A stretch of DNA of 64,000 bases, taken from the NCBI RefSeq assembly GCF_055900595.2, contig NZ_CM148325.1; one strand, 5' to 3'. Shown in pieces: positions 9,575 to 51,835 of this stretch (positions are counted from its first letter, which is position 1; every line of letters begins with the position of its first letter). Under the pieces are notes generated by a model that saw only the letters and a program-made list of their open reading frames with translations, was not told the DNA's origin and ran no database searches. Made by a program: the position numbers and the translations under genes.

Positions 9575-10606
9575 TTAGTCGCTGGTTGCATGATGACTTG
9601 CCTCCAGCGACGGAGTTGACACTGAATGGCGACGTACCAGCGTCGGACTAAAGACATTAGTGATTTCCGGGAGAGGGCGATTATCAGCCAGCGCCAAAGC
9701 CAGTTCGGCAGCCTGGGTCGCCATCGTCACGATTGGGTAACGCACGGTGGTCAGACGCGGGCGCACATAGCGTGACACCAGCACATCATCAAAGCCAATT
9801 AACGAAATCTCACCCGGTACATCAATACCATTATCATTGAGAACGCCCATCGCGCCCGCTGCCATTGAATCGTTATAACAGGCTACCGCAGTGAAATTTC
9901 TTCCTCGCCCCAAAAGCTCGGTCATTGCCTGTTCGCCGCCGCTTTCGTCCGGTTCGCCAAACGTCACCAGCCGATCATTGGCCGGAATACCACTTTCAGC
10001 GAGGGCATCGTAATAACCCTGCAGACGATCTTCGGCGTCAGAAATAGAGTGGTTAGAGCACAAATAACCAATGCGGGTATGACCTTGTTGAATTAGATGA
10101 CGCGTTGCCAGCCAGGCACCGTAACGGTCGTCCAGAGCAATACAACGGTTTTCAAAGCCAGGCAGGATACGGTTGATCAGCACCATACCGGGCATTTGTT
10201 TCATTAATGAGGCTAAGTCGGCATCCGGGATCATTTTGGCATGGACGACCAGCGCAGCGCAGCGATGGCGGATCAGTTGCTCAATGGCCTGACGCTCTTT
10301 TTGCTCGTTGTGGTAACCGTTGCCAATCAATAAGAAATTACCGGTGTGATAAGCCACCTGTTCGACCGCTTTCACCATTGCACCGAAAAACGGATCGGAA
10401 ACATCACCAACGACCAGACCGATCGTTTCAGTGGTCTGCTGCGCCAGCGCACGGGCGTTGGCGTTCGGGTGATAGCTAAGAGACTCCATTGCACTATGCA
10501 CAGCCAGTCGGGAAGCTTCGCTGGCTTTGGGTGAATTATTAATGACGCGGGAAACGGTGGCGACTGAAACGCCTGCCAGTCGGGCTACATCCTTTATGGT
10601 CGCCAT
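9575..10606 (-). CDS. galR: Galactose repressor (LacI family)
   Basis: 343 aa; N-terminal MATIKDVARLAGVSVATVSRVIN LacI-type HTH. Confidence 0.93.
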   Translation of the reverse strand: MATIKDVARLAGVSVATVSRVINNSPKASEASRLAVHSAMESLSYHPNANARALAQQTTETIGLVVGDVSDPFFGAMVKAVEQVAYHTGNFLLIGNGYHNEQKERQAIEQLIRHRCAALVVHAKMIPDADLASLMKQMPGMVLINRILPGFENRCIALDDRYGAWLATRHLIQQGHTRIGYLCSNHSISDAEDRLQGYYDALAESGIPANDRLVTFGEPDESGGEQAMTELLGRGRNFTAVACYNDSMAAGAMGVLNDNGIDVPGEISLIGFDDVLVSRYVRPRLTTVRYPIVTMATQAAELALALADNRPLPEITNVFSPTLVRRHSVSTPSLEASHHATSD

Positions 10607-10819
10607 GAAAATACCTTAGTGGGTAAACGCTTACATTCTGTCAGTGTTACGGAAAATACCTGTTGGTTCAAGTGGCGACGTGTTTTCATCGTGGGAATGT
10701 GAGCCAAACGCAAATAAATAAGACAAAAAAAGAGATTGCAAACCTTTGGTTACACTTTGCGAAACGCTGTTGCGATTGACCGCTGGTTGCGTTTGGCTTC
10801 AGGTTGCTAAAGTGGTGGT

Positions 10820-10902
10820 CCCAGAGGTATTGATAGGTGAAGTCAACTTCGGGTTGAGCACATGAATTACACCAGCCTGCGCAGATGCGCAGGTTTTTTT
10901 TT
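10820..10902 (+). ncRNA. omrB: OmrB small regulatory RNA
   Basis: Starts cccagaggtattgataggtga..., ends with hairpin cctgcgcagatgcgcagg plus a T9 run; about 83 nt; paralogous to the downstream copy. Confidence 0.85.
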
Positions 10903-11016
10903 GCCGGTCATCAATCTGTAACAGTAACCGACAATTTACACACCTCGTTGCATTTCCCTTCATTCCTTTGCGTTTTCTCGCTGGCGAAGAGTCGTCGTGC
11001 AGACCACAATCAAGAT

Positions 11017-11104
11017 CCCAGAGGTATTGATTGGTGAGATTATTCGGTACGCTCTTCGTACCCTGTCTCTTGCACCAACCTGCGCGGATGCGCAGGTTTT
11101 TTTT
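11017..11104 (+). ncRNA. omrA: OmrA small regulatory RNA
   Basis: Starts cccagaggtattgattggtgag..., same conserved 5' seed and 3' terminator (cctgcgcggatgcgcagg plus T8); about 88 nt; immediately upstream of aas. Confidence 0.85.
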
Positions 11105-11170
11105 CGCACCTAATTTACTGTCGCTCGCGTTCTTTATCTCGTGTAATCTCCCTCCATTCGCTTTTACTGA

Positions 11171-14537
<3,367 letters not shown>

Positions 14538-14542
14538 GCTTT

Positions 14543-14571
14543 CACCAGATGGCATATTCAGCCATCTGGTG
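14543..14571. terminator. Perfect 11-bp palindrome between convergent lplT and the DUF4139-like gene
   Basis: caccagatggc-atattca-gccatctggtg, 5 nt after the lplT stop and 5 nt before the opposite-strand stop; no clear U-tract on either side. Confidence 0.4.
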
Positions 14572-14575
14572 AAGA

Positions 14576-16231
14576 TCACATTCCCGAAGGGTGCATACCT
14601 TTCGGATACTTCACGCTGTATGAGAATGGCAGACTCACGTTCTCTTTGCCTGACAGTTTCAGCGTCCAGGACAGTTCACCCGTTTTCGCATCAAACTGTG
14701 CCTGGCCATATTGCATTTTTTCCACCGTAATATCACTGTTAGCACTGACTGGGATCTGGTCGAGTAGAGTGATATCCACCGCTTCGCCGTAGCTGTTCTT
14801 TACATTGAGGGTGTAACTGAAGTTGCGTACCGCGCTGTCGTTAAAGATAGATAACGCATTCTCTTTTTTGAGTACGGCTTTACGCTGAATAATCAGCTTA
14901 GGATCGCGGTTAAGCTGAATATCCAGCGACTTACCATCTTCTGGCGGCTGCAAATAGCCCACGCCGGTACGGTTGTTACCAAAGAAGATCTGACTTTCGC
15001 CGGGGATTAAATTTAACTGTTCCCACTCTTTAATTTGCACCTGGAGATACGCGTCATTACTGATCTTCGGAATAGCAAAGAAGCGATATTTACCGCTGAC
15101 CGACTCTTCCTTAATGACCACCGTGCGCGCGGTATTATCGCTGTCGATTTGCCACGGCAGCGAAAGCGCATAGCGGACATTTTGCGCAGTGAAACTTTCT
15201 GGTCGAGCCGAAGCTGGCACTGCCTGTTCGGCATACTTGCGCCCGGCTTGTCGCTCCCTTGTTTTTTGCATCTCTGCCTTCAGGGTTTTCTGCAATTCTG
15301 AGGCATCCTGGTTAGACGAATATTCCGAACGCTGTTCCATCACGGGTGATGCTGAAAGCGAGCCGCTTACACCACCATACTCCGGAACATCCACATACAG
15401 GGTTTCCAGGTGTGGCAACGTAAGATGAGTATCAGGTTCACTGGTCGAGAGCACGAGATTAACGCCTTTCCAGGGCAACCCCGTATACTGGCGAATATTA
15501 GCCTTGTAAACCAGACGCAGCGGCTGGTTTATGGCAGTGGCGTGAATATCATAGATCGGCGTCCAGGTAGCATCAGGGGTCATATAACGTACCACCGCTT
15601 TCGCTGTGACGGCTTTTGGGGCATAGACCTTAGCGATAATAACCTGCGGATCATTGGCTGCCACCGAATCGCCGTTACTCATGCTCTCGCGTTGCTCCAG
15701 CTTTTCAATTTCAAGCTGCTTATCAGCAAGTTTCTGCGTCAACTCATTGTCGACTTGTAATAACTCACCATTTTTCTCTTTCACCATTTGCAGATACTTG
15801 CCAACTTCGGCGGCACTTTTATTGGTTAATGTGCTATTTGCCTCTAATACCTTAATTTGAGCCGCGATATTGTTTTTCTCGGCGGTCAGTTTTGCCTGTT
15901 CCACCTTTGCTGCTTTTAACTGTTGCTGAATATCTGACGGCAGCGCATTCGGCTGTGTTTCCATTAGCGCGATACGTGAGGAAAGCACCGTCACTCCGTT
16001 ATCGATAGAAATGGCGATGCTGTCGTCGGTTACTGAATTGGCGATATTAGTAAAGATAATTTCGCTTTCACCTGCCGGTAAGTGGAGTATCTCTTCACCT
16101 TGCAGGCTGGCACCATGCAGATAAACAGTGACGTCTTTAAGTGTTAGCGGTTGGGTTACCTGCGCCCCCCAAGCGGAGGACAGGCACCCGGTAAGCAACA
16201 TGGCGAGGGGAATAGGTTTGAAAATCAACAT
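14576..16231 (-). CDS. DUF4139/DUF4140-like (MuiA-like) lipoprotein with central coiled coil
   Basis: 551 aa from ATG at 16231 (MLIFKPIPLAMLLTGC..., aagga RBS 5 nt upstream; the track ORF starts 5 codons earlier at TTG). Lipobox LLTGC; central K/E/Q-rich heptad-like region; Y/T/N-rich C-terminal part. I do not recall a gene at this position in K-12. Confidence 0.75.
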   Translation of the reverse strand: MLIFKPIPLAMLLTGCLSSAWGAQVTQPLTLKDVTVYLHGASLQGEEILHLPAGESEIIFTNIANSVTDDSIAISIDNGVTVLSSRIALMETQPNALPSDIQQQLKAAKVEQAKLTAEKNNIAAQIKVLEANSTLTNKSAAEVGKYLQMVKEKNGELLQVDNELTQKLADKQLEIEKLEQRESMSNGDSVAANDPQVIIAKVYAPKAVTAKAVVRYMTPDATWTPIYDIHATAINQPLRLVYKANIRQYTGLPWKGVNLVLSTSEPDTHLTLPHLETLYVDVPEYGGVSGSLSASPVMEQRSEYSSNQDASELQKTLKAEMQKTRERQAGRKYAEQAVPASARPESFTAQNVRYALSLPWQIDSDNTARTVVIKEESVSGKYRFFAIPKISNDAYLQVQIKEWEQLNLIPGESQIFFGNNRTGVGYLQPPEDGKSLDIQLNRDPKLIIQRKAVLKKENALSIFNDSAVRNFSYTLNVKNSYGEAVDITLLDQIPVSANSDITVEKMQYGQAQFDAKTGELSWTLKLSGKENVSLPFSYSVKYPKGMHPSGM

Positions 16232-16339
16232 GGTTATCCTTAACAATGGGCACAGACATTGAAACGCGCGCTGGCGTTGACCAAAAGAGTCTATTGCGCT
16301 TTGTCAGGAAAGATGCGGAGAAAAGTAGTGAATATATTC

Positions 16340-16382
16340 TGAAAAGTGGAGAAAAGAGACGCCTGGTGCAAAACACCAGGCG
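16340..16382 (-). terminator. Rho-independent terminator after tas
   Basis: Stem cgcctggtg/caccaggcg with caaaa loop, 6 nt downstream of the tas stop, followed on the minus strand by a T-rich tract. Confidence 0.6.
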
Positions 16383-16388
16383 AAAGGA

Positions 16389-17429
16389 TCACGGTGCCGG
16401 ATAAGTATAAACCTGATGTACCGCTTCAATTTCAGCTAATACGTCTTCGCTTAACTCCAGATGCAAACTTTCGACGTTAGTTTTCAGCTGCTCCATCGTG
16501 GTTGCGCCCAGCAGAGTGCTGGCAACAAACGGTTGACGGCGTACAAAAGCGAGCGCCATCTGAGCAGGATCCAGGCCATGACGTCTGGCGATATCGACAT
16601 ACGCCGCGACGGCTTTTTGCGTTTGCTCACCGCTATAGCGAGTGAAGCGGCTAAAGAGCGTATTACGTGCGCCAGCAGGTTTTGCACCGTTGAGGTATTT
16701 CCCGGTCAGCGTGCCGAAACCCAGACACGAATAGGCCAGCAGCTCGACCCCTTCATACTGGCTGACTTCTGCCAGACCCACTTCAAAACTGCGGTTTAAC
16801 AGACTGTAGGGGTTCTGAATGGTGACAATACGCGGCAGATCGTGTTTGTCCGCCAGATGCAGGTAGCGCATTACGCCAAATGCAGTTTCGTTCGACACGC
16901 CGATATAACGAATTTTTCCCGCGCGTTGGTACTCTGCCAGTGCGTCCAGCGTATCCAGCAGCGAAACCGCAGGGGCAGAATCTGTCCAGCTATAACCGAG
17001 TTTGCCGAAGCAGTTGGTTGGGCGCTGCGGCCAGTGCACCTGATAAAGATCGAGGTAATCAGTCTGCAGGCGCTTGAGGCTGTCATGCAGAGCTTCGCGG
17101 ATATTCTTCCGATCCAGCGCCTGATCCGGGCGGATGCCCTTGTCATTATTGCGCGACGGTCCGCTCACTTTGGAAGCGATAATTAACTTTTCGCGGCTGC
17201 CATGTTTTGCCAGCCAGTTACCGACGTAGGTTTCGGTTAACCCTTGCGTTTCGGGGCGCGGCGGCACTGGGTACATTTCGGCAACGTCGATAAGGTTAAT
17301 GCCCTGAGCGACGGCATAGTCGAGTTGTGCGTGGGCGTCGGCTTCGCTGTTCTGTTCACCAAACGTCATCGTGCCAAGCCCCAGCGTGCTGACTTCCAGC
17401 GAACTGTGGGGTATACGGTGATATTGCAT
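16389..17429 (-). CDS. tas: NADP(H)-dependent aldo-keto reductase Tas
   Basis: 346 aa; aldo-keto reductase family sequence (MQYHRIPHSSLEVSTLGLGTMTFG...). Confidence 0.92.
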   Translation of the reverse strand: MQYHRIPHSSLEVSTLGLGTMTFGEQNSEADAHAQLDYAVAQGINLIDVAEMYPVPPRPETQGLTETYVGNWLAKHGSREKLIIASKVSGPSRNNDKGIRPDQALDRKNIREALHDSLKRLQTDYLDLYQVHWPQRPTNCFGKLGYSWTDSAPAVSLLDTLDALAEYQRAGKIRYIGVSNETAFGVMRYLHLADKHDLPRIVTIQNPYSLLNRSFEVGLAEVSQYEGVELLAYSCLGFGTLTGKYLNGAKPAGARNTLFSRFTRYSGEQTQKAVAAYVDIARRHGLDPAQMALAFVRRQPFVASTLLGATTMEQLKTNVESLHLELSEDVLAEIEAVHQVYTYPAP

Positions 17430-38401: not shown

Positions 38402-38510
38402 CCTGATGCGATGCATGCGCGTCCTGTCATGCCTCCGGGCATTGCGCATATGCGCATCTGGCGATTTCCGTCGCTTACCCTAAATCCGCCATCAACACCT
38501 TTGATTTGAT
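38402..38510. repeat. Degenerate direct copy of the argA 3' end and flank
   Basis: About 109 bp (cctgatgcgatgcatgcgcg...ccatcaacac) about 85% identical to 38559-38667, which contains the real argA stop. Confidence 0.7.
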
Positions 38511-38546
<36 letters not shown>

Positions 38547-38558
38547 TGAGCGTCAATA

Positions 38559-38667
38559 CCTGATGCGATGCTAGCGTGTTTATCATGCCTCCAGGCATTG
38601 CGCATGTCGCATCTGGCGATTTCCACCACTTACCCCAAATCCGCCATCAACACTTTGGATTTACGCT
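38559..38667. repeat. Second copy of the direct repeat (overlaps the argA 3' coding end)
   Basis: Reverse complement of 38633-38653 encodes the ArgA C-terminus ...VLMADLG followed by the stop codon. Confidence 0.7.
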
Positions 38668-41445: not shown

Positions 41446-41613
41446 TGTTTTTATTTATTCAATGAATTTATATTTCGTTGAATAGATAATATTTACCTGA
41501 ATATTAGACGTTGGTTTTGTGACTGATGTCGAATATTTGAATGTCGGCTTGAAAAATAAGCCGACCATCTCTTTAATTAAGCACAATTCCGTGTAATGTA
41601 TATGCATTAGTTA

Positions 41614-41647
41614 ATCATCTTGTAACTGTTAAATCAGGCAAGGCAAT
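41614..41647 (+). promoter_or_regulatory. RAT (ribonucleic antiterminator) element in the operon leader
   Basis: tcatcTTGTaACTGtTAAAtCAGGCAAggCa resembles the SacY/LicT/BglG RAT consensus GGATTGTTACTGATAAAGCAGGCAAAACC; its 3' part overlaps the left arm of the following terminator. Confidence 0.6.
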
Positions 41648-41691
41648 GTTTGAAGTAATTATTACTTCTGACGTGCCTTGCCTTTTTTTTT
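41638..41691 (+). terminator. Leader rho-independent terminator overlapping the RAT
   Basis: Outer stem ggcaaggca/tgccttgcc (41638-41646 and 41674-41682) with an inner stem gaagtaat/attacttc, followed by T9 (41683-41691). Confidence 0.7.
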
Positions 41692-41702
41692 GGAGCTATG
41701 GA

Positions 41703-42527
41703 ATGATCATCGAAAAAGTCATGAACAATAATTGTGTACAGGCATCGATGAATGGACAGGAGGTTATCATTTCTGGGCCTGGCGTCGGTTACAACAAAAA
41801 ATATGGAATGTCGGTCCCTGAGCATCCGGCTAACCGGATTTTTTATGTCAGAAATGAACAAAAAAATAAACTCTACAAATTGATTGAACATGTGGATATT
41901 GAGTATGTTTTTGTTGCCGAAAAAATAGTGCAATATGCGGAGAACAATCTCGAAAAAAATCTCAATCCATCGCTACTATTGATTCTTGCTGATCATATTT
42001 CGAATGCAATATCCCGAGTCGCTTCAGGCATACAAATTAATAATGTTTTCCTTGATGAAATCAAAGCGTTGTACAAAGCAGAGTATGCGATAAGTCGCGA
42101 TGCATTAACTATCATTAATGAGCAATTCAGCGTTCAACTTCCTGATGATGAGATTGGTTTTATAGCATTGCATATTTTAAATAATTATGAAAATTCAGTT
42201 GATTATGAATCAGTACGGATTATTGAGTTGTCGCAAATAATCACGGGGCTTATTGAAGTTGTTTATAACAGAAAGGTGGACAGAAGTTCATTTAATTATT
42301 CCAGGTTCATGATACACCTTAAATATTTTTCAAGTCGCGTATTATGCAATGAAAAAATAAAACAGAAAGATATTGGTGATCTCTATGAACAGTTTCTTGA
42401 GAAAGACATTCTGTTACAGCGCGCAATTCATGAAATTGAAAGGTATTTGTACGCCACTTTTAAATATGAATTGATTTTGGAAGAAAAACTATATCTCTCT
42501 ATTCGCACCAAAGTATTAATGGACTGA
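41703..42527 (+). CDS. BglG/LicT/SacY-family transcriptional antiterminator (CAT domain plus two PRDs)
   Basis: 274 aa from ATG at 41703 (MIIEKVMNNNCVQASMNGQEVIISGPGVGYNKK = CAT RNA-binding domain); conserved His in PRD-like segments (IGFIALHILNN, RFMIHLKYFSS); ggag RBS 7 nt upstream. The track start at 41646 lies inside the terminator hairpin. Confidence 0.8.
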   Translation: MIIEKVMNNNCVQASMNGQEVIISGPGVGYNKKYGMSVPEHPANRIFYVRNEQKNKLYKLIEHVDIEYVFVAEKIVQYAENNLEKNLNPSLLLILADHISNAISRVASGIQINNVFLDEIKALYKAEYAISRDALTIINEQFSVQLPDDEIGFIALHILNNYENSVDYESVRIIELSQIITGLIEVVYNRKVDRSSFNYSRFMIHLKYFSSRVLCNEKIKQKDIGDLYEQFLEKDILLQRAIHEIERYLYATFKYELILEEKLYLSIRTKVLMD

Positions 42528-42558
42528 TTATATATAACATTTATATGAGATAACCCGC

Positions 42559-44139
42559 ATGAAACAAAAGAAAGCCTGGAGTTTTTTTCAGAGCCTGGGA
42601 AAGGCATTTATGTATCCCATCGCTCTGCTAAGTGTATGTGGCATGATGTTAGGGCTAGGAAGTGGTTTAGCCAGCGATGATATGGCAAAATTAATTCCAC
42701 TACTGGCTATTCCCGTAATTAAAACCATTCTTGATTTTATTGTTAGCCTTGGTTTGTTTGCCTTTGTCAATTTACCTGTATTGTTTGCGATAGCTATACC
42801 TCTGGGGTTATTAAAAGAGAAAGAGGATAAAGCCTATGGCGCTTTTTCTGGCTTAATTGGTTTCATGGCGATGCATCTGGGAACGAACTTTTATCTTAAA
42901 CAACATGACTTATTGGTCGCTGCTGATCAAATGTCGACACATGGGCAAACCATTATTCTGGGAATCCAGTCCTACAATACCAGTGTGTTGGGTGGGATTA
43001 TAGCAGGATTATTAGTCGCCAGTATGTATAAAAAGATCGTTAACTTACGTATTCCTGAATCATTAGGATTTTATAGTGGCCCACGCCTGGTGCCTATTAT
43101 TACACTGATTGTGATGAGCGGATTTGGTCTGATCATCCCTTTTATCTGGCCGCCATTTTTCAATCTTTTCATGCTCATTGGCCACTGGATTTCAACTTCC
43201 GGTCCTGTTGGCTATTTTTTCTATGCAGTCGCCGAACGCGTGACGATACCTTTTGGTTTAAATCACCTGGTGACGTCAGTTTTCCGCTTTACCCCCATCG
43301 GCGGATCGGCAGTGATCGGCGGAGAAGAGTATTATGGCACCCTGAACATGTTTATGGCGTACGTCAAAGAGAATGCGGTCATTCCGCTGGATTTGGCGGG
43401 GAAAATGGAACAGGGCAAACTGATGATTCAGTATGGTCTGGCTGGTGCCGCGCTGGCGATGTATCGCACTGCTCATGCTCAAAACAGAAAAGCTATCAAA
43501 GCATTGCTTATTTCCGGGGTGCTTACAGTCATTATTGGCGGCGTCAGCGAACCGATTGAGTTTCTGTTCTTATTTGTCAGTCCACTGCTATTTGTCTTCC
43601 ATGCTTTTATGAATGGATTCGCCAACATGGTCTTGCCATATATGGGCGTGAAGATGGGATTTACTGGCGATCTGATTCAATTTATTAGCTTTGGCGTATT
43701 GCGTGGCACAAGAACAGGTTGGCCAATAGCGGTGTGTGTCGAAGTGGCCTATTTCTTTATTTATTACTTTGTGTTCCGTTGGACTATTCTCAAATTTAAC
43801 CTGATGACGGTAGGCCGTGAAGAGTCCAGTCCTGTCACGCTGAACGCTCATGAGGATACGGCTATAGCGGATATCCCACCGCTTGATAAATCAGAGCTGC
43901 AAGCAGCGGAGCAGATGGTTAAGGCACTTGGTGGTAAAGAGAATATTAAATCCCTGGATAATTGCGTAACTCGTTTACGTTTAACAATCGCAGATATGGG
44001 ATTGATTGACGAGGCAGCAATAAAAAGAGCTGGCGGAATTGCGGTTGTTAAACTTGATCAAAATACCCTACAAGTCATTATCGGTACTAAAGTCATCGCC
44101 TTGCGTCGGGATATGGATAACTACATGGGGATATGCTGA
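42559..44139 (+). CDS. PTS glucose-family EIICB permease (no EIIA domain)
   Basis: 526 aa; about 10 TM segments (EIIC) then a C-terminal EIIB domain with phosphorylatable Cys in NCVTRLRLTIADMGL...AVVKLDQNTLQVIIGTK. Confidence 0.85.
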   Translation: MKQKKAWSFFQSLGKAFMYPIALLSVCGMMLGLGSGLASDDMAKLIPLLAIPVIKTILDFIVSLGLFAFVNLPVLFAIAIPLGLLKEKEDKAYGAFSGLIGFMAMHLGTNFYLKQHDLLVAADQMSTHGQTIILGIQSYNTSVLGGIIAGLLVASMYKKIVNLRIPESLGFYSGPRLVPIITLIVMSGFGLIIPFIWPPFFNLFMLIGHWISTSGPVGYFFYAVAERVTIPFGLNHLVTSVFRFTPIGGSAVIGGEEYYGTLNMFMAYVKENAVIPLDLAGKMEQGKLMIQYGLAGAALAMYRTAHAQNRKAIKALLISGVLTVIIGGVSEPIEFLFLFVSPLLFVFHAFMNGFANMVLPYMGVKMGFTGDLIQFISFGVLRGTRTGWPIAVCVEVAYFFIYYFVFRWTILKFNLMTVGREESSPVTLNAHEDTAIADIPPLDKSELQAAEQMVKALGGKENIKSLDNCVTRLRLTIADMGLIDEAAIKRAGGIAVVKLDQNTLQVIIGTKVIALRRDMDNYMGIC

Positions 44140-45314
44140 TGGATGTTTTTAATACTCCTATTTCCCGCAAAGGAACATATTGTACCCAATGGGACTTTTG
44201 CGAGGACAGATTTGGTGTAAAAGATGTATTACCATTCTCTATTTCAGATATGGATCTTCCGATACCGGAAGCTATCATCAGGGCATTAAAAAAACGTCTG
44301 GAACACCCGATTTTAGGGTACAGCCGTTGGCAGCATGATGACTATCTGAATGCGATAGTCAATTGGTATCATCAACAATATAAAACTGAAATCAAACCAG
44401 AATGGATCACCTATAGCCCAAGCGTGATGTACTCCATTGCTAAAGCAATAGAGTTATTGACATCGCATGGTGATAATATTCTCGTTTTTACACCTGTCTA
44501 TAATGCATTTTTTGATATAATTAAACATAGTGAGAGAAATATTCTGACAGCCTCTTTGATTATAAAAAATGAGGGGGGCTACGCTATCAATTGGCAAGAT
44601 TTTGATCTTAAGATTCAAAGCGCAAAGATGGTGTTATTATGTAATCCTCATAACCCGACAGGAACCGTCTGGTCGGAAGAAGATCTGCATAAAATCGCTG
44701 CAAGCTGTGCAAGACATAATGTCTGGTTATGTTCAGATGAAATTCACAGTGATTTTGTTTTTAATCGTAGCTTTACATCTGCGCTTAAAATAAAAAAAGA
44801 AAAAGTAGTGGTGTTTAATTCGATATCGAAGACATTTAATGTTCCCGCGCTAACAGGATCGTATATGATTTCAACTGACGATAATTTTAATCATAAGTTC
44901 AGAACGATATCAAGATATCGCGATTTTGTAAACTCCCCATCCGTACTGAATATAATTGCAACTATTATTGCCTATAACGAATGTGAGGGATGGTTAAAGT
45001 CATTAAAGGCACATATTGCCTCTAACATTCAATTCACCCAGCAGTATCTGAACGAAAATACTCCAGAATTGATCGTAAGGCCAGCTGATGGTTGCTATTT
45101 TTCGTGGATAGATTGCTCTGCTATTGGTTATCCATTTGATGAATTCTACAGTCGATTAATTCATGAAGGCAAAGTGGGCATTATGGCGGGGAATGTCTAT
45201 GGAACGGAGGGGGAGGGCTACCTTCGTCTGAACCTGGCCTGCGGTCGAGAAAAATTATATATGGGGCTTACGCGTCTTGCGAGTGTAATTAAAAATATTA
45301 ATCAAGGAAAATAA
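44133..45314 (+). CDS. PLP-dependent aminotransferase class I/II, MalY/PatB-like C-S lyase
   Basis: 393 aa; NPHNPTG motif and Schiff-base Lys in NSISKTFN; start overlaps the PTS gene stop (ATGCTGATGGA). Confidence 0.8.
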   Translation: MLMDVFNTPISRKGTYCTQWDFCEDRFGVKDVLPFSISDMDLPIPEAIIRALKKRLEHPILGYSRWQHDDYLNAIVNWYHQQYKTEIKPEWITYSPSVMYSIAKAIELLTSHGDNILVFTPVYNAFFDIIKHSERNILTASLIIKNEGGYAINWQDFDLKIQSAKMVLLCNPHNPTGTVWSEEDLHKIAASCARHNVWLCSDEIHSDFVFNRSFTSALKIKKEKVVVFNSISKTFNVPALTGSYMISTDDNFNHKFRTISRYRDFVNSPSVLNIIATIIAYNECEGWLKSLKAHIASNIQFTQQYLNENTPELIVRPADGCYFSWIDCSAIGYPFDEFYSRLIHEGKVGIMAGNVYGTEGEGYLRLNLACGREKLYMGLTRLASVIKNINQGK

Positions 45315-45316
45315 AA

Positions 45317-45913
45317 ATGAACAGCACGGATCTTATCCATCTCATTAAACATTTTATGCGTAACGAACATAAAGCAGTTGAAGAAGTTATTGATTCCCCC
45401 CTTTCGGAGGTTGCAAATTTAATTAAAGTATTACAGTCTTGTCAGGGGAAAGTTGTTTTTATTGGTGTCGGTAAGTCCGGTATTATTGCCCGAAAACTCG
45501 CCGCAACATTTGCCAGCACTGGAACTCCCTCGTTTTTTGTTCACGGTACTGAAGCCGTACACGGCGATCTTGGGATGGTGGCGAAAGATGATGTTGTTAT
45601 TCTTATTTCAAACAGTGGTGAGACGACAGAAATCCTGGCAACACTACCTAGTCTGAAAAAAATGGGTAATTATTTGATCTCCTTTACCCGCAGTCATCGC
45701 TCATCGCTTGCGATAAGTTGTGATTTATCCGTTGAAATTCCCGTAAAAAGTGAGGCGGATAATTTAGGTTTAGCGCCGTCATGCTCATCAACAGTCGTTC
45801 TGGTTGTTGGTGATGCGGTGGCGCTTGCGCTCTCCGAATTGAAAAAGTTTACTCGTGCTGATTTCGGCTTATATCATCCAGGAGGTGCGCTCGGTATTAA
45901 AGCAAACTCATAA
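45317..45913 (+). CDS. SIS-domain sugar-phosphate isomerase (KdsD/GutQ-like catalytic domain without CBS domains)
   Basis: 198 aa; VVFIGVGKSGIIARKLAATFASTGTPSFFVHGTEAVHGDLGMV...ISNSGET...HPGGALG closely resembles the SIS core of arabinose-5-phosphate isomerases; no C-terminal CBS pair. Confidence 0.8.
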   Translation: MNSTDLIHLIKHFMRNEHKAVEEVIDSPLSEVANLIKVLQSCQGKVVFIGVGKSGIIARKLAATFASTGTPSFFVHGTEAVHGDLGMVAKDDVVILISNSGETTEILATLPSLKKMGNYLISFTRSHRSSLAISCDLSVEIPVKSEADNLGLAPSCSSTVVLVVGDAVALALSELKKFTRADFGLYHPGGALGIKANS

Positions 45914-45983
45914 TTTTAGAATATAAAACAGTAACCGGTCACGCCATCTTTTGGGGTGGCGTTCATTGATGTGAGTGTCAGCT

Positions 45984-46931
45984 ATGAAAAACGTTCTGGT
46001 CACCGTTCCCAGCTTTTCAGCGCGTTGTGTTTCTGCCAGCAAGCTGCTAAGAGAAAATCATTTTAACCTTATTATCAAGAATAATGTGGAGCATCTGGTT
46101 AAATCAGAATCCACAGTATTACGAGAATCTATTTGCGCAGTCATTGCCGGAAAAGATTGTTATCAAGCGGATACGTTATCGCGACTACCAGGAGTGAAAA
46201 TAATATCGAGATTCGGGACAGGGATTGATAATATTGATCTTCATACGGCTCGACAATCAGGTATTGTGGTCAATAATGCTGTTGGGATTAATTCAAATGC
46301 AGTCGCGGAATTTATCATTGGTCTTATTTTTGCGAGCATGAGAAATATCCCCGGTAGCTATCATGCGATGCAAAATGGTTATTGGGGCGAGTCGCATGGC
46401 TGCGAGTTACAAGGTAAACGTATTGGCCTGCTTGGCTACGGCAATATTGGCAAAACACTGGCGAAAAGGTTATCTGGTTTTGATGTTGAGCTTTTAGCTT
46501 TTGACAAACAACCCGATTTCCAGGCCGCAGGCAAAGATGGAGTTCAGTTCGTATCAATTGAAGATATCTTTATGCAGTCTCATGTCATCATCGTTCTTTT
46601 GCCATTTTCTCCTGAGCTGGAGAACTTCATTAGTCATAAATATTTGTCGATGATGCGCAATGGTGCTCTTATCATCAACGCCGCAAGGGGAAAGTTGCTG
46701 GATGAGGGGGCTTTACTTCAGGTAATTGAAGAACGAAATGTTTTTGCAGCACTGGATGTGTTTAGCTCTGAACCGCTAGCGCAATTTAGCCCATTGCTAC
46801 ATGCCAGGAATATCATTACAACGCCGCATATTGCGGCCGCCACCGTTGAGTCATACCAGCAAACCGGGATATACGTTGCCAGGTCGATAATAGATTTCTT
46901 TGCAGGAAGGGAGATAAAAAACGTGCTGTGA
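45984..46931 (+). CDS. D-isomer-specific 2-hydroxyacid dehydrogenase family, NAD(P)-binding
   Basis: 315 aa from ATG at 45984 (MKNVLVTVPSF...; the track ORF starts 3 codons earlier at GTG); GLLGYGNIGKTLAKRL nucleotide-binding motif; catalytic-region motifs NAARGKLLDE and TPHIAAAT. Confidence 0.8.
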   Translation: MKNVLVTVPSFSARCVSASKLLRENHFNLIIKNNVEHLVKSESTVLRESICAVIAGKDCYQADTLSRLPGVKIISRFGTGIDNIDLHTARQSGIVVNNAVGINSNAVAEFIIGLIFASMRNIPGSYHAMQNGYWGESHGCELQGKRIGLLGYGNIGKTLAKRLSGFDVELLAFDKQPDFQAAGKDGVQFVSIEDIFMQSHVIIVLLPFSPELENFISHKYLSMMRNGALIINAARGKLLDEGALLQVIEERNVFAALDVFSSEPLAQFSPLLHARNIITTPHIAAATVESYQQTGIYVARSIIDFFAGREIKNVL

Positions 46932-46957
46932 GTTCAGCTAAGGAAGATTTCAGGTAC

Positions 46958-46991
46958 AAAAAAACCGCAATCTGTGAAACACATTGCGGTT
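46958..46991 (-). terminator. Terminator of the tRNA-fMet operon (bidirectional hairpin)
   Basis: Stem aaccgcaat/attgcggtt with 11-nt loop; on the minus strand it is followed by a U7 tract (the A-run 46958-46964), 19 nt downstream of the tRNA 3' end. Confidence 0.65.
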
Positions 46992-47009
46992 TATCAGCAT
47001 CATAAGTGT

Positions 47010-47086
<77 letters not shown>

Positions 47087-47119
47087 TCACCGTACTGCTT
47101 TACTTCATCAAATTTTGAT

Positions 47120-47196
<77 letters not shown>

Positions 47197-47229
47197 TCAC
47201 CGTACTGCTTTACTTCATCAAATTTTAAT

Positions 47230-47306
<77 letters not shown>

Positions 47307-51629: not shown

Positions 51630-51835
51630 AAAAAAAAGCACCGCAATTAGGCGGTGCTACATTAATCACTATGGACAGACAGGGTAAATGTACAGGAAGT
51701 GAAAAAAGGTAGCTTTGCTACCATGGTCTGAATCGCAGACCAATTGCAAACACAACAACACAACATCACAACCGTAAGCCAAAAGTTCACCAGAACACGC
51801 ATTCCGATAAAACTTTTCGTTCCGGCTCAGGAAGT
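51630..51835 (-). ncRNA. gcvB: GcvB small regulatory RNA
   Basis: Minus strand reads ACTTCCTGAGCCGGAACGAAAAGTTTTATCGGAATGCGTGTTCTGGTGAAC...GTTGTGTTGTTGTGTTTGCAATTGG...GCACCGCCTAATTGCGGTGCTTTTTTTT: G/U-rich seed region and terminal hairpin plus U8; divergent from gcvA. Confidence 0.9.

Follow-up and report, generated by a model that had tools for sequence, protein, structure and literature searches.

The tandem OmrB and OmrA small RNA genes between galR and aas in a non-K-12 Escherichia coli

The two related stretches at 10820-10901 and 11017-11104 of the window, by which is meant the whole 64,000-nucleotide length of DNA analysed (assembly GCF_055900595.2, contig NZ_CM148325.1), are by identity, position, structure and conservation the known omrB and omrA genes of Escherichia coli; nothing in the identity of the RNAs is new. 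It is close to certain that they serve as paralogous, independently transcribed small RNA (sRNA) genes, each with a promoter and a terminator of its own, whose products act in trans by the mechanism already published for them.

The genes occupy a non-coding gap of 585 bp (10607-11191) between the start codon of galR, which ends at 10606, and the ATG of aas at 11192. galR is the divergent neighbour, and aas lies downstream on the same strand as omrB and omrA; NCBIfam models identify the outer neighbours as LysA, past galR, and LplT, past aas. The starts of omrB and omrA are 197 bp apart, which is the classical tandem arrangement, and the 3' end of omrA is only 87 bp upstream of the aas ATG. A preliminary description of this DNA, made from the sequence without database searches, had placed tandem OmrB and OmrA genes between galR and aas in a gap of 'roughly 580' bp, and the Rfam matches and K-12 alignments agree with it; the limits it gave are borne out by Rfam and by the K-12 annotation alike, which start omrB at 10820 and end omrA at 11104. 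The features of the locus are as follows, the -10 hexamers having been placed from the known +1 positions.

9575-10606, minus strand: galR; 343-aa open reading frame; NF008002 GalR equivalog, 735 bits against a cut-off of 557; position as in K-12
10740-10819, plus strand: omrB promoter region; -10 hexamer TAAAGT at 10808-10813, -12T
10820-10901, plus strand: omrB (sRNA OmrB), 82 nt; RF00079 match and identity to K-12 b4445
10874-10902, plus strand: omrB intrinsic terminator (hairpin 10874-10895); 9 pairs (6 G-C), loop CAGA, 9 T; from a terminator scan
10903-11016, plus strand: omrA promoter region; -10 hexamer CACAAT at 11005-11010, -12C; all identical to K-12
11017-11104, plus strand: omrA (sRNA OmrA), 88 nt; RF00079 match and identity to K-12 b4444
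11077-11104, plus strand: omrA intrinsic terminator (hairpin 11077-11098); 9 pairs (6 G-C), loop CGGA, 8 T; from a terminator scan
11192-13351, plus strand: aas; 719-aa open reading frame; NF005959, 1521 bits against a cut-off of 886; position as in K-12

The whole window was scanned against Rfam 15 with Infernal at gathering thresholds, the gathering score of the OmrA-B family (RF00079) being 40. Both copies match this model from end to end (positions 1-87 of 87, not truncated), omrB (10820-10901, plus strand) with 86.1 bits and an E-value of 2.3e-15, and omrA (11017-11104, plus strand) with 96.6 bits and an E-value of 6.4e-18. In common with the family model, the two window copies have an unpaired 5' seed, an outer GGUG/CACC helix, an inner hairpin and a terminator hairpin; OmrB scores lower because its centre is 5 nt shorter than the consensus and four of its positions in the central helices of the model are non-canonical. 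The first copy is identical to K-12 omrB (b4445) at 82 of 82 positions and the second to K-12 omrA (b4444) at 88 of 88. In K-12 these genes formerly went by the names rygB (omrB) and rygA or sraE (omrA). The covariance-model scan and the alignment to K-12 were the two checks that the preliminary description had proposed, and both bear it out. Swapped labels, with the first copy as OmrA, were also considered and are ruled out by the alignments to b4445 and b4444; the title of the preliminary description, with OmrB ahead of OmrA as transcription runs, therefore has the order right.

The likeness of the two RNAs is concentrated at their ends. Exact copies of the 15-nt seed CCCAGAGGTATTGAT lie on the plus strand at 10820-10834 and 11017-11031, and the window has no other mismatch-free site; in shuffled sequence 0.08 matches are expected at up to two mismatches, and 0 of 100 shuffles reach 3. 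The 5' end, CCCAGAGGUAUUGAU, is exact in both copies and falls at the annotated +1 of the K-12 genes. Identity extends to 20 of the first 21 nt and 32 of the last 35 nt, so that the early claim of a common 5' seed and a near-identical terminator holds, as does the claim that the copies differ centrally: the segments in between (26 nt against 32 nt) are unrelated. A terminator begins 54-60 nt after each seed, with a 9-pair stem, a 4-nt loop and 8-9 T, and the two hairpins differ at two positions only, base 2 of the stem (G against A) and one base of the loop (CAGA against CGGA). With a run of nine T here and eight in K-12, the 3' end of omrB may be put at 10901 or equally at 10902, giving 82 or 83 nt. 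In the predicted fold of OmrA (-29.5 kcal/mol, z -2.7), nucleotides 1-15 are unpaired and are followed by the GGUG/CACC helix, a 6-pair central hairpin and the terminator. For OmrB (-26.6 kcal/mol, z -2.9) a central hairpin of 6 pairs and the terminator are likewise predicted, and its minimum-energy fold pairs nucleotides 7-9, leaving only the first 6 nt predicted free.

The terminators bear on the alternative that survives best, in which omrA would be mainly a cis-acting leader or attenuator for aas-lplT, with read-through of its terminator supplying the aas transcript. The short distance between omrA and aas on a common strand fits such an arrangement, and no consensus promoter was found in the 87 bp before aas. 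Yet the omrA terminator is a strong one (9 pairs, 6 of them G-C, and 8 T), and omrA and omrB have been described as individual trans-acting transcription units (PMC13425233). A mainly cis-acting role is thus very unlikely, and read-through into aas, if it occurs, would add to the trans role of OmrA and not replace it.

The window is collinear with positions 2,935,000-2,984,900 of K-12, in reverse orientation and at about 97% identity, over about 57 kb, and the order, strand relation and neighbours of the genes (galR, omrB, omrA, aas, lplT, lysA) are the same in both. The intergenic region differs from that of K-12 by ten substitutions and one indel.

10640, 10657, 10658, 10661, 10673, 10676 and 10678: seven substitutions close to the galR start
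10718: substitution upstream of omrB
10788: substitution at -32 of omrB; T here, G in K-12
10818: substitution at -2 of omrB; G here, A in K-12
10894-10902: indel in the T-run of the omrB terminator; 9 T here, 8 in K-12

Neither RNA body carries any change. The stretch 10903-11191, which takes in the omrA promoter, omrA and the aas leader, has 0 differences from K-12, against about 97.6% identity in the flanking genes. The only undescribed features are the -32T, the -2G and the 9-T run of the omrB unit, which, judged by their sequence, are ordinary polymorphisms.

Of 5426 complete E. coli genomes, 5423 have the intergenic region, 5405 of them at a coverage of at least 80%; in only 9 of the 5423 is it at least 99% identical to that of the window. 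The remaining three genomes have no match to it, and of the 5427 places that match, one is plasmid-borne.

Several other parts of the window were compared with K-12. A full-length GcvB sRNA gene lies at 51630-51835 on the minus strand (RF00022, 199 bits against a gathering score of 42), beside gcvA as in K-12, and three tandem tRNA-Met(CAT) genes at 47010-47306 on the minus strand, with 110 bp spacing, correspond to the K-12 initiator tRNA genes metZ, metW and metV. Between amiC and the metV tRNA is a 5.5-kb segment (41447-47008) that is absent from K-12; it encodes a BglG-type antiterminator (PRD and CAT_RBD domains), a PTS EIIC/EIIB permease, a MalY/PatB-type aminotransferase, a SIS-domain isomerase and a 2-hydroxyacid dehydrogenase, and is found in 1688 of 5426 complete E. 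coli genomes, in most at just 90-95% identity. The argA-recD intergenic region (38412-38600) is about 190 bp longer than in K-12. The extra DNA looks like a second copy of a unit of roughly 70 bp (tgatgcgatgc...catgcctccgggcattgcgcat...ctggcgatttcc), and a REP-like palindrome (gtaggtcggataaggcg...cgccgcatccgac) lies between the two units. An insertion between lplT and tas (14538-16392), in place of about 35 bp in K-12, carries an open reading frame (14576-16246, minus strand) for a 556-aa DUF4140/DUF4139 protein. This gene is present in only 51 of the 5426 complete genomes, with a best match of 99.2%; its rarity and the level of that match place the window in an uncommon lineage with no exact representative among the 5426.

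The conservation of the RNAs beyond E. coli was followed with an exact 15-mer scan of one genome per species, a sample of taxa and not a census, which gave at least 120 loci. More than half of these are chance matches, in unrelated phyla, of the bare 15-mer without GGUG or a terminator. Among the matches listed, 63 distinct sequences have the seed, NGGUG, a variable centre, CACC and a terminator, and all are from Enterobacterales. The genera with this full layout among the matches listed include, within the Enterobacteriaceae, Escherichia, Citrobacter, Enterobacter, Lelliottia, Kosakonia, Kluyvera, Pluralibacter, Mangrovibacter, Shimwellia, Siccibacter and others, and, in other families, Pantoea, Erwinia, Tatumella, Serratia, Rahnella, Dickeya, Pectobacterium and Edwardsiella; three of the full-layout loci are from metagenome bins labelled just 'Proteobacteria' or 'Enterobacter'.

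Across the 63 homologues the terminator stems keep their pairing by means of compensatory changes (CCUGCGC/GCGCAGG, CCUACGC/GCGUAGG, CCCACGC/GCGUGGG and CCUGCGU/ACGCAGG), and folding of each sequence separately predicts a central hairpin in 56 of them despite their divergent sequence. The GGUG/CACC helix is not independent evidence in this set, because the homologue filter required both motifs. RNAalifold, applied to MAFFT alignments of 17 OmrB-type and 16 OmrA-type sequences, recovered only the outer helix and the terminator, with a 4-pair inner stem in addition for the OmrA type, and gave near-zero covariation because the variable centre was misaligned; it was replaced by the per-sequence folds and the tally of terminator stem types.

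Omr genes of other Enterobacterales, such as the lone OmrA of Yersinia enterocolitica and the OmrAB of Erwinia, share with those of the window the 15-nt 5' end, GGUG...CACC and a GC-rich terminator (PMC12692685). The number of copies varies. In the loci that were fetched, Dickeya, Pectobacterium, Rahnella, Erwinia, Tatumella and Lelliottia have a single exact-seed copy, and Serratia has one or two. In Pantoea there are two copies of the Omr family about 2 kb apart, not about 200 bp (2747 and 4789 in locus L030; 647 and 2680 in locus L059), with lengths of 76 nt, which is unusually short, and 91 nt, which is long. In Mangrovibacter yixingensis (3320 and 3522 in locus L092) both tandem copies are of the OmrB type, with A as nucleotide 16, the sequence UUACACC close to the 3' end and similar central hairpins, which points to gene conversion or an independent duplication rather than to an OmrA/OmrB pair.

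An invariant 5' end, indels in the centre that are not multiples of three, and paired stems make up the pattern of an RNA and not of a reading frame, and there is next to no likelihood that the gap encodes one or more small proteins. Six-frame open reading frames do overlap the RNAs, for example 10885-11037 (plus strand, 50 aa), 10799-10963 (minus strand, 54 aa) and 11031-11201 (plus strand, 56 aa), but frames of 30-56 aa are similarly dense throughout the neighbouring coding sequence, and the curated K-12 annotation has no coding gene between galR and aas. Just as improbable is that the repeats are non-functional duplicated intergenic DNA, for instance a duplicated terminator with chance similarity upstream: a consensus scan that finds no promoter, and a RefSeq pipeline that lists nothing here in most strains, would fit that idea, but both copies span the covariance model in full and score over twice its gathering score, have exactly the sequence of K-12 genes characterised by experiment, are free of substitutions where the flanking genes are about 97.6% identical to K-12, and belong to a layout kept across the Enterobacterales with compensatory changes in the stems.

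The reading as two independently transcribed sRNA genes accords with what is known of their promoters. A consensus sigma-70 scan of 10550-11250 returned 0 promoter-like sites, a null result that is uninformative because both promoters are activator-dependent and have poor -35 elements. OmpR-P activates both promoters directly in vitro, EnvZ-OmpR activates their transcription in K-12 in vivo as well, and the RNAs feed back on ompR (PMC5175337). omrA depends almost wholly on sigma-S owing to the C at -12, and omrB has the canonical -12T (PMC12692685). The two genes are separate transcription units that Enterobacteriaceae keep in tandem; multicopy RstB-RstA activates omrB only, and when T-75 and A-68 of PomrB are mutated, activation by pRstAB is lost and that by pOmpR strongly reduced (PMC13425233). 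In the window, the conserved box upstream of omrB contains a putative OmpR/RstA-type site, TTTGGTTACA, at 10745-10754 (about -75 to -66), in which T-75 (10745) and A-68 (10752) can both be read. Given the promoter differences at -32 and -2, OmrB levels could differ from those in K-12.

The expression, Hfq dependence and targets of the window's omrB and omrA we infer from the literature. According to the published scheme, EnvZ-OmpR would activate both promoters, omrA would depend additionally on sigma-S through its -12C, and acid-responsive RstB-RstA, supplied from a multicopy plasmid, would activate omrB specifically. Both RNAs would bind Hfq, at a 3' end that the terminator supplies, and their common single-stranded 5' end, about nucleotides 1-21, would pair near the ribosome-binding site of targets that include cirA, ompT, fecA, fepA and ompR-envZ, with others added later. 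Such pairing would block translation and promote RNase E-dependent decay, and pairing with ompR would close a negative feedback loop on the RNAs' own activator.

In K-12 much of this scheme has an experimental footing. OmpR dependence and the control of outer-membrane protein mRNAs are established (PMC2588501, PMC5175337), both transcripts have been detected from sequences identical to those of the window, and OmrA and OmrB act via Hfq and RNase E (PMC2588501). Pairing is by the conserved 5' end, close to where translation of the cirA, ompT and ompR mRNAs is initiated; mutation in this pairing region abolished control of every target tested, and for ompR the pairing was proven by compensatory mutations (PMC2588501). 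The regulon is now wider than outer-membrane proteins and takes in ompR itself, flgM, dgcM and btuB, and OmrB also acts as an sRNA sponge on RydC (PMC12692685).

Nucleotides 1-9 (CCCAGAGGU) of both RNAs in the window can form nine consecutive pairs with ACCUUUGGG at -19 to -11 of K-12 ompR, a match that agrees with the compensatory-mutation proof (PMC2588501), and a bulged pairing with cirA is found just upstream of its AUG. Duplex energies were compared for the first 30 nt of each RNA against K-12 ompR and cirA and against 41 translation-initiation regions of the window. For the two RNAs, 3 of 41 and 7 of 41 window regions equalled or exceeded ompR, and 23 of 41 and 17 of 41 equalled or exceeded cirA. 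Since the known targets do not separate from this background, the target mechanism rests on the published experiments and not on computation.

Multi-copy paralogous Hfq-dependent sRNAs that have a common seed, overlapping regulons and separate promoters able to integrate different signals occur also in Vibrio (Qrr1-5) and Pseudomonas (PrrF1/F2). Their sequence, regulators and targets are unrelated to those of OmrA and OmrB, and the likeness is an analogy, not membership of one family.

The finding matters for annotation only. It had been expected that an annotation of open reading frames would miss the RNAs, and RefSeq has no feature under omrB-omrA in any of the 15 best-matching genomes listed, whereas the curated record of K-12 MG1655 has omrA (b4444, 88 nt) and omrB (b4445, 82 nt) both, in the interval from galR to aas. 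OmrA and OmrB are central regulators of the envelope and of iron uptake, and go unlabelled where annotation relies on ORFs or on the RefSeq default. What the window holds is already known, namely the OmrB and OmrA genes of the reference, carried by an E. coli other than K-12; their recovery from raw sequence is a scan working correctly, and advances no open question. The K-12 RNAs have been studied for years and the field is still active, with papers that run from 2008 to 2026. There is a slender chance that the -32T, -2G and 9-T variants of omrB could shift basal or OmpR/RstA-dependent expression of OmrB relative to OmrA; if they do, the window would be a natural allele for studying the differential regulation of the two paralogues.
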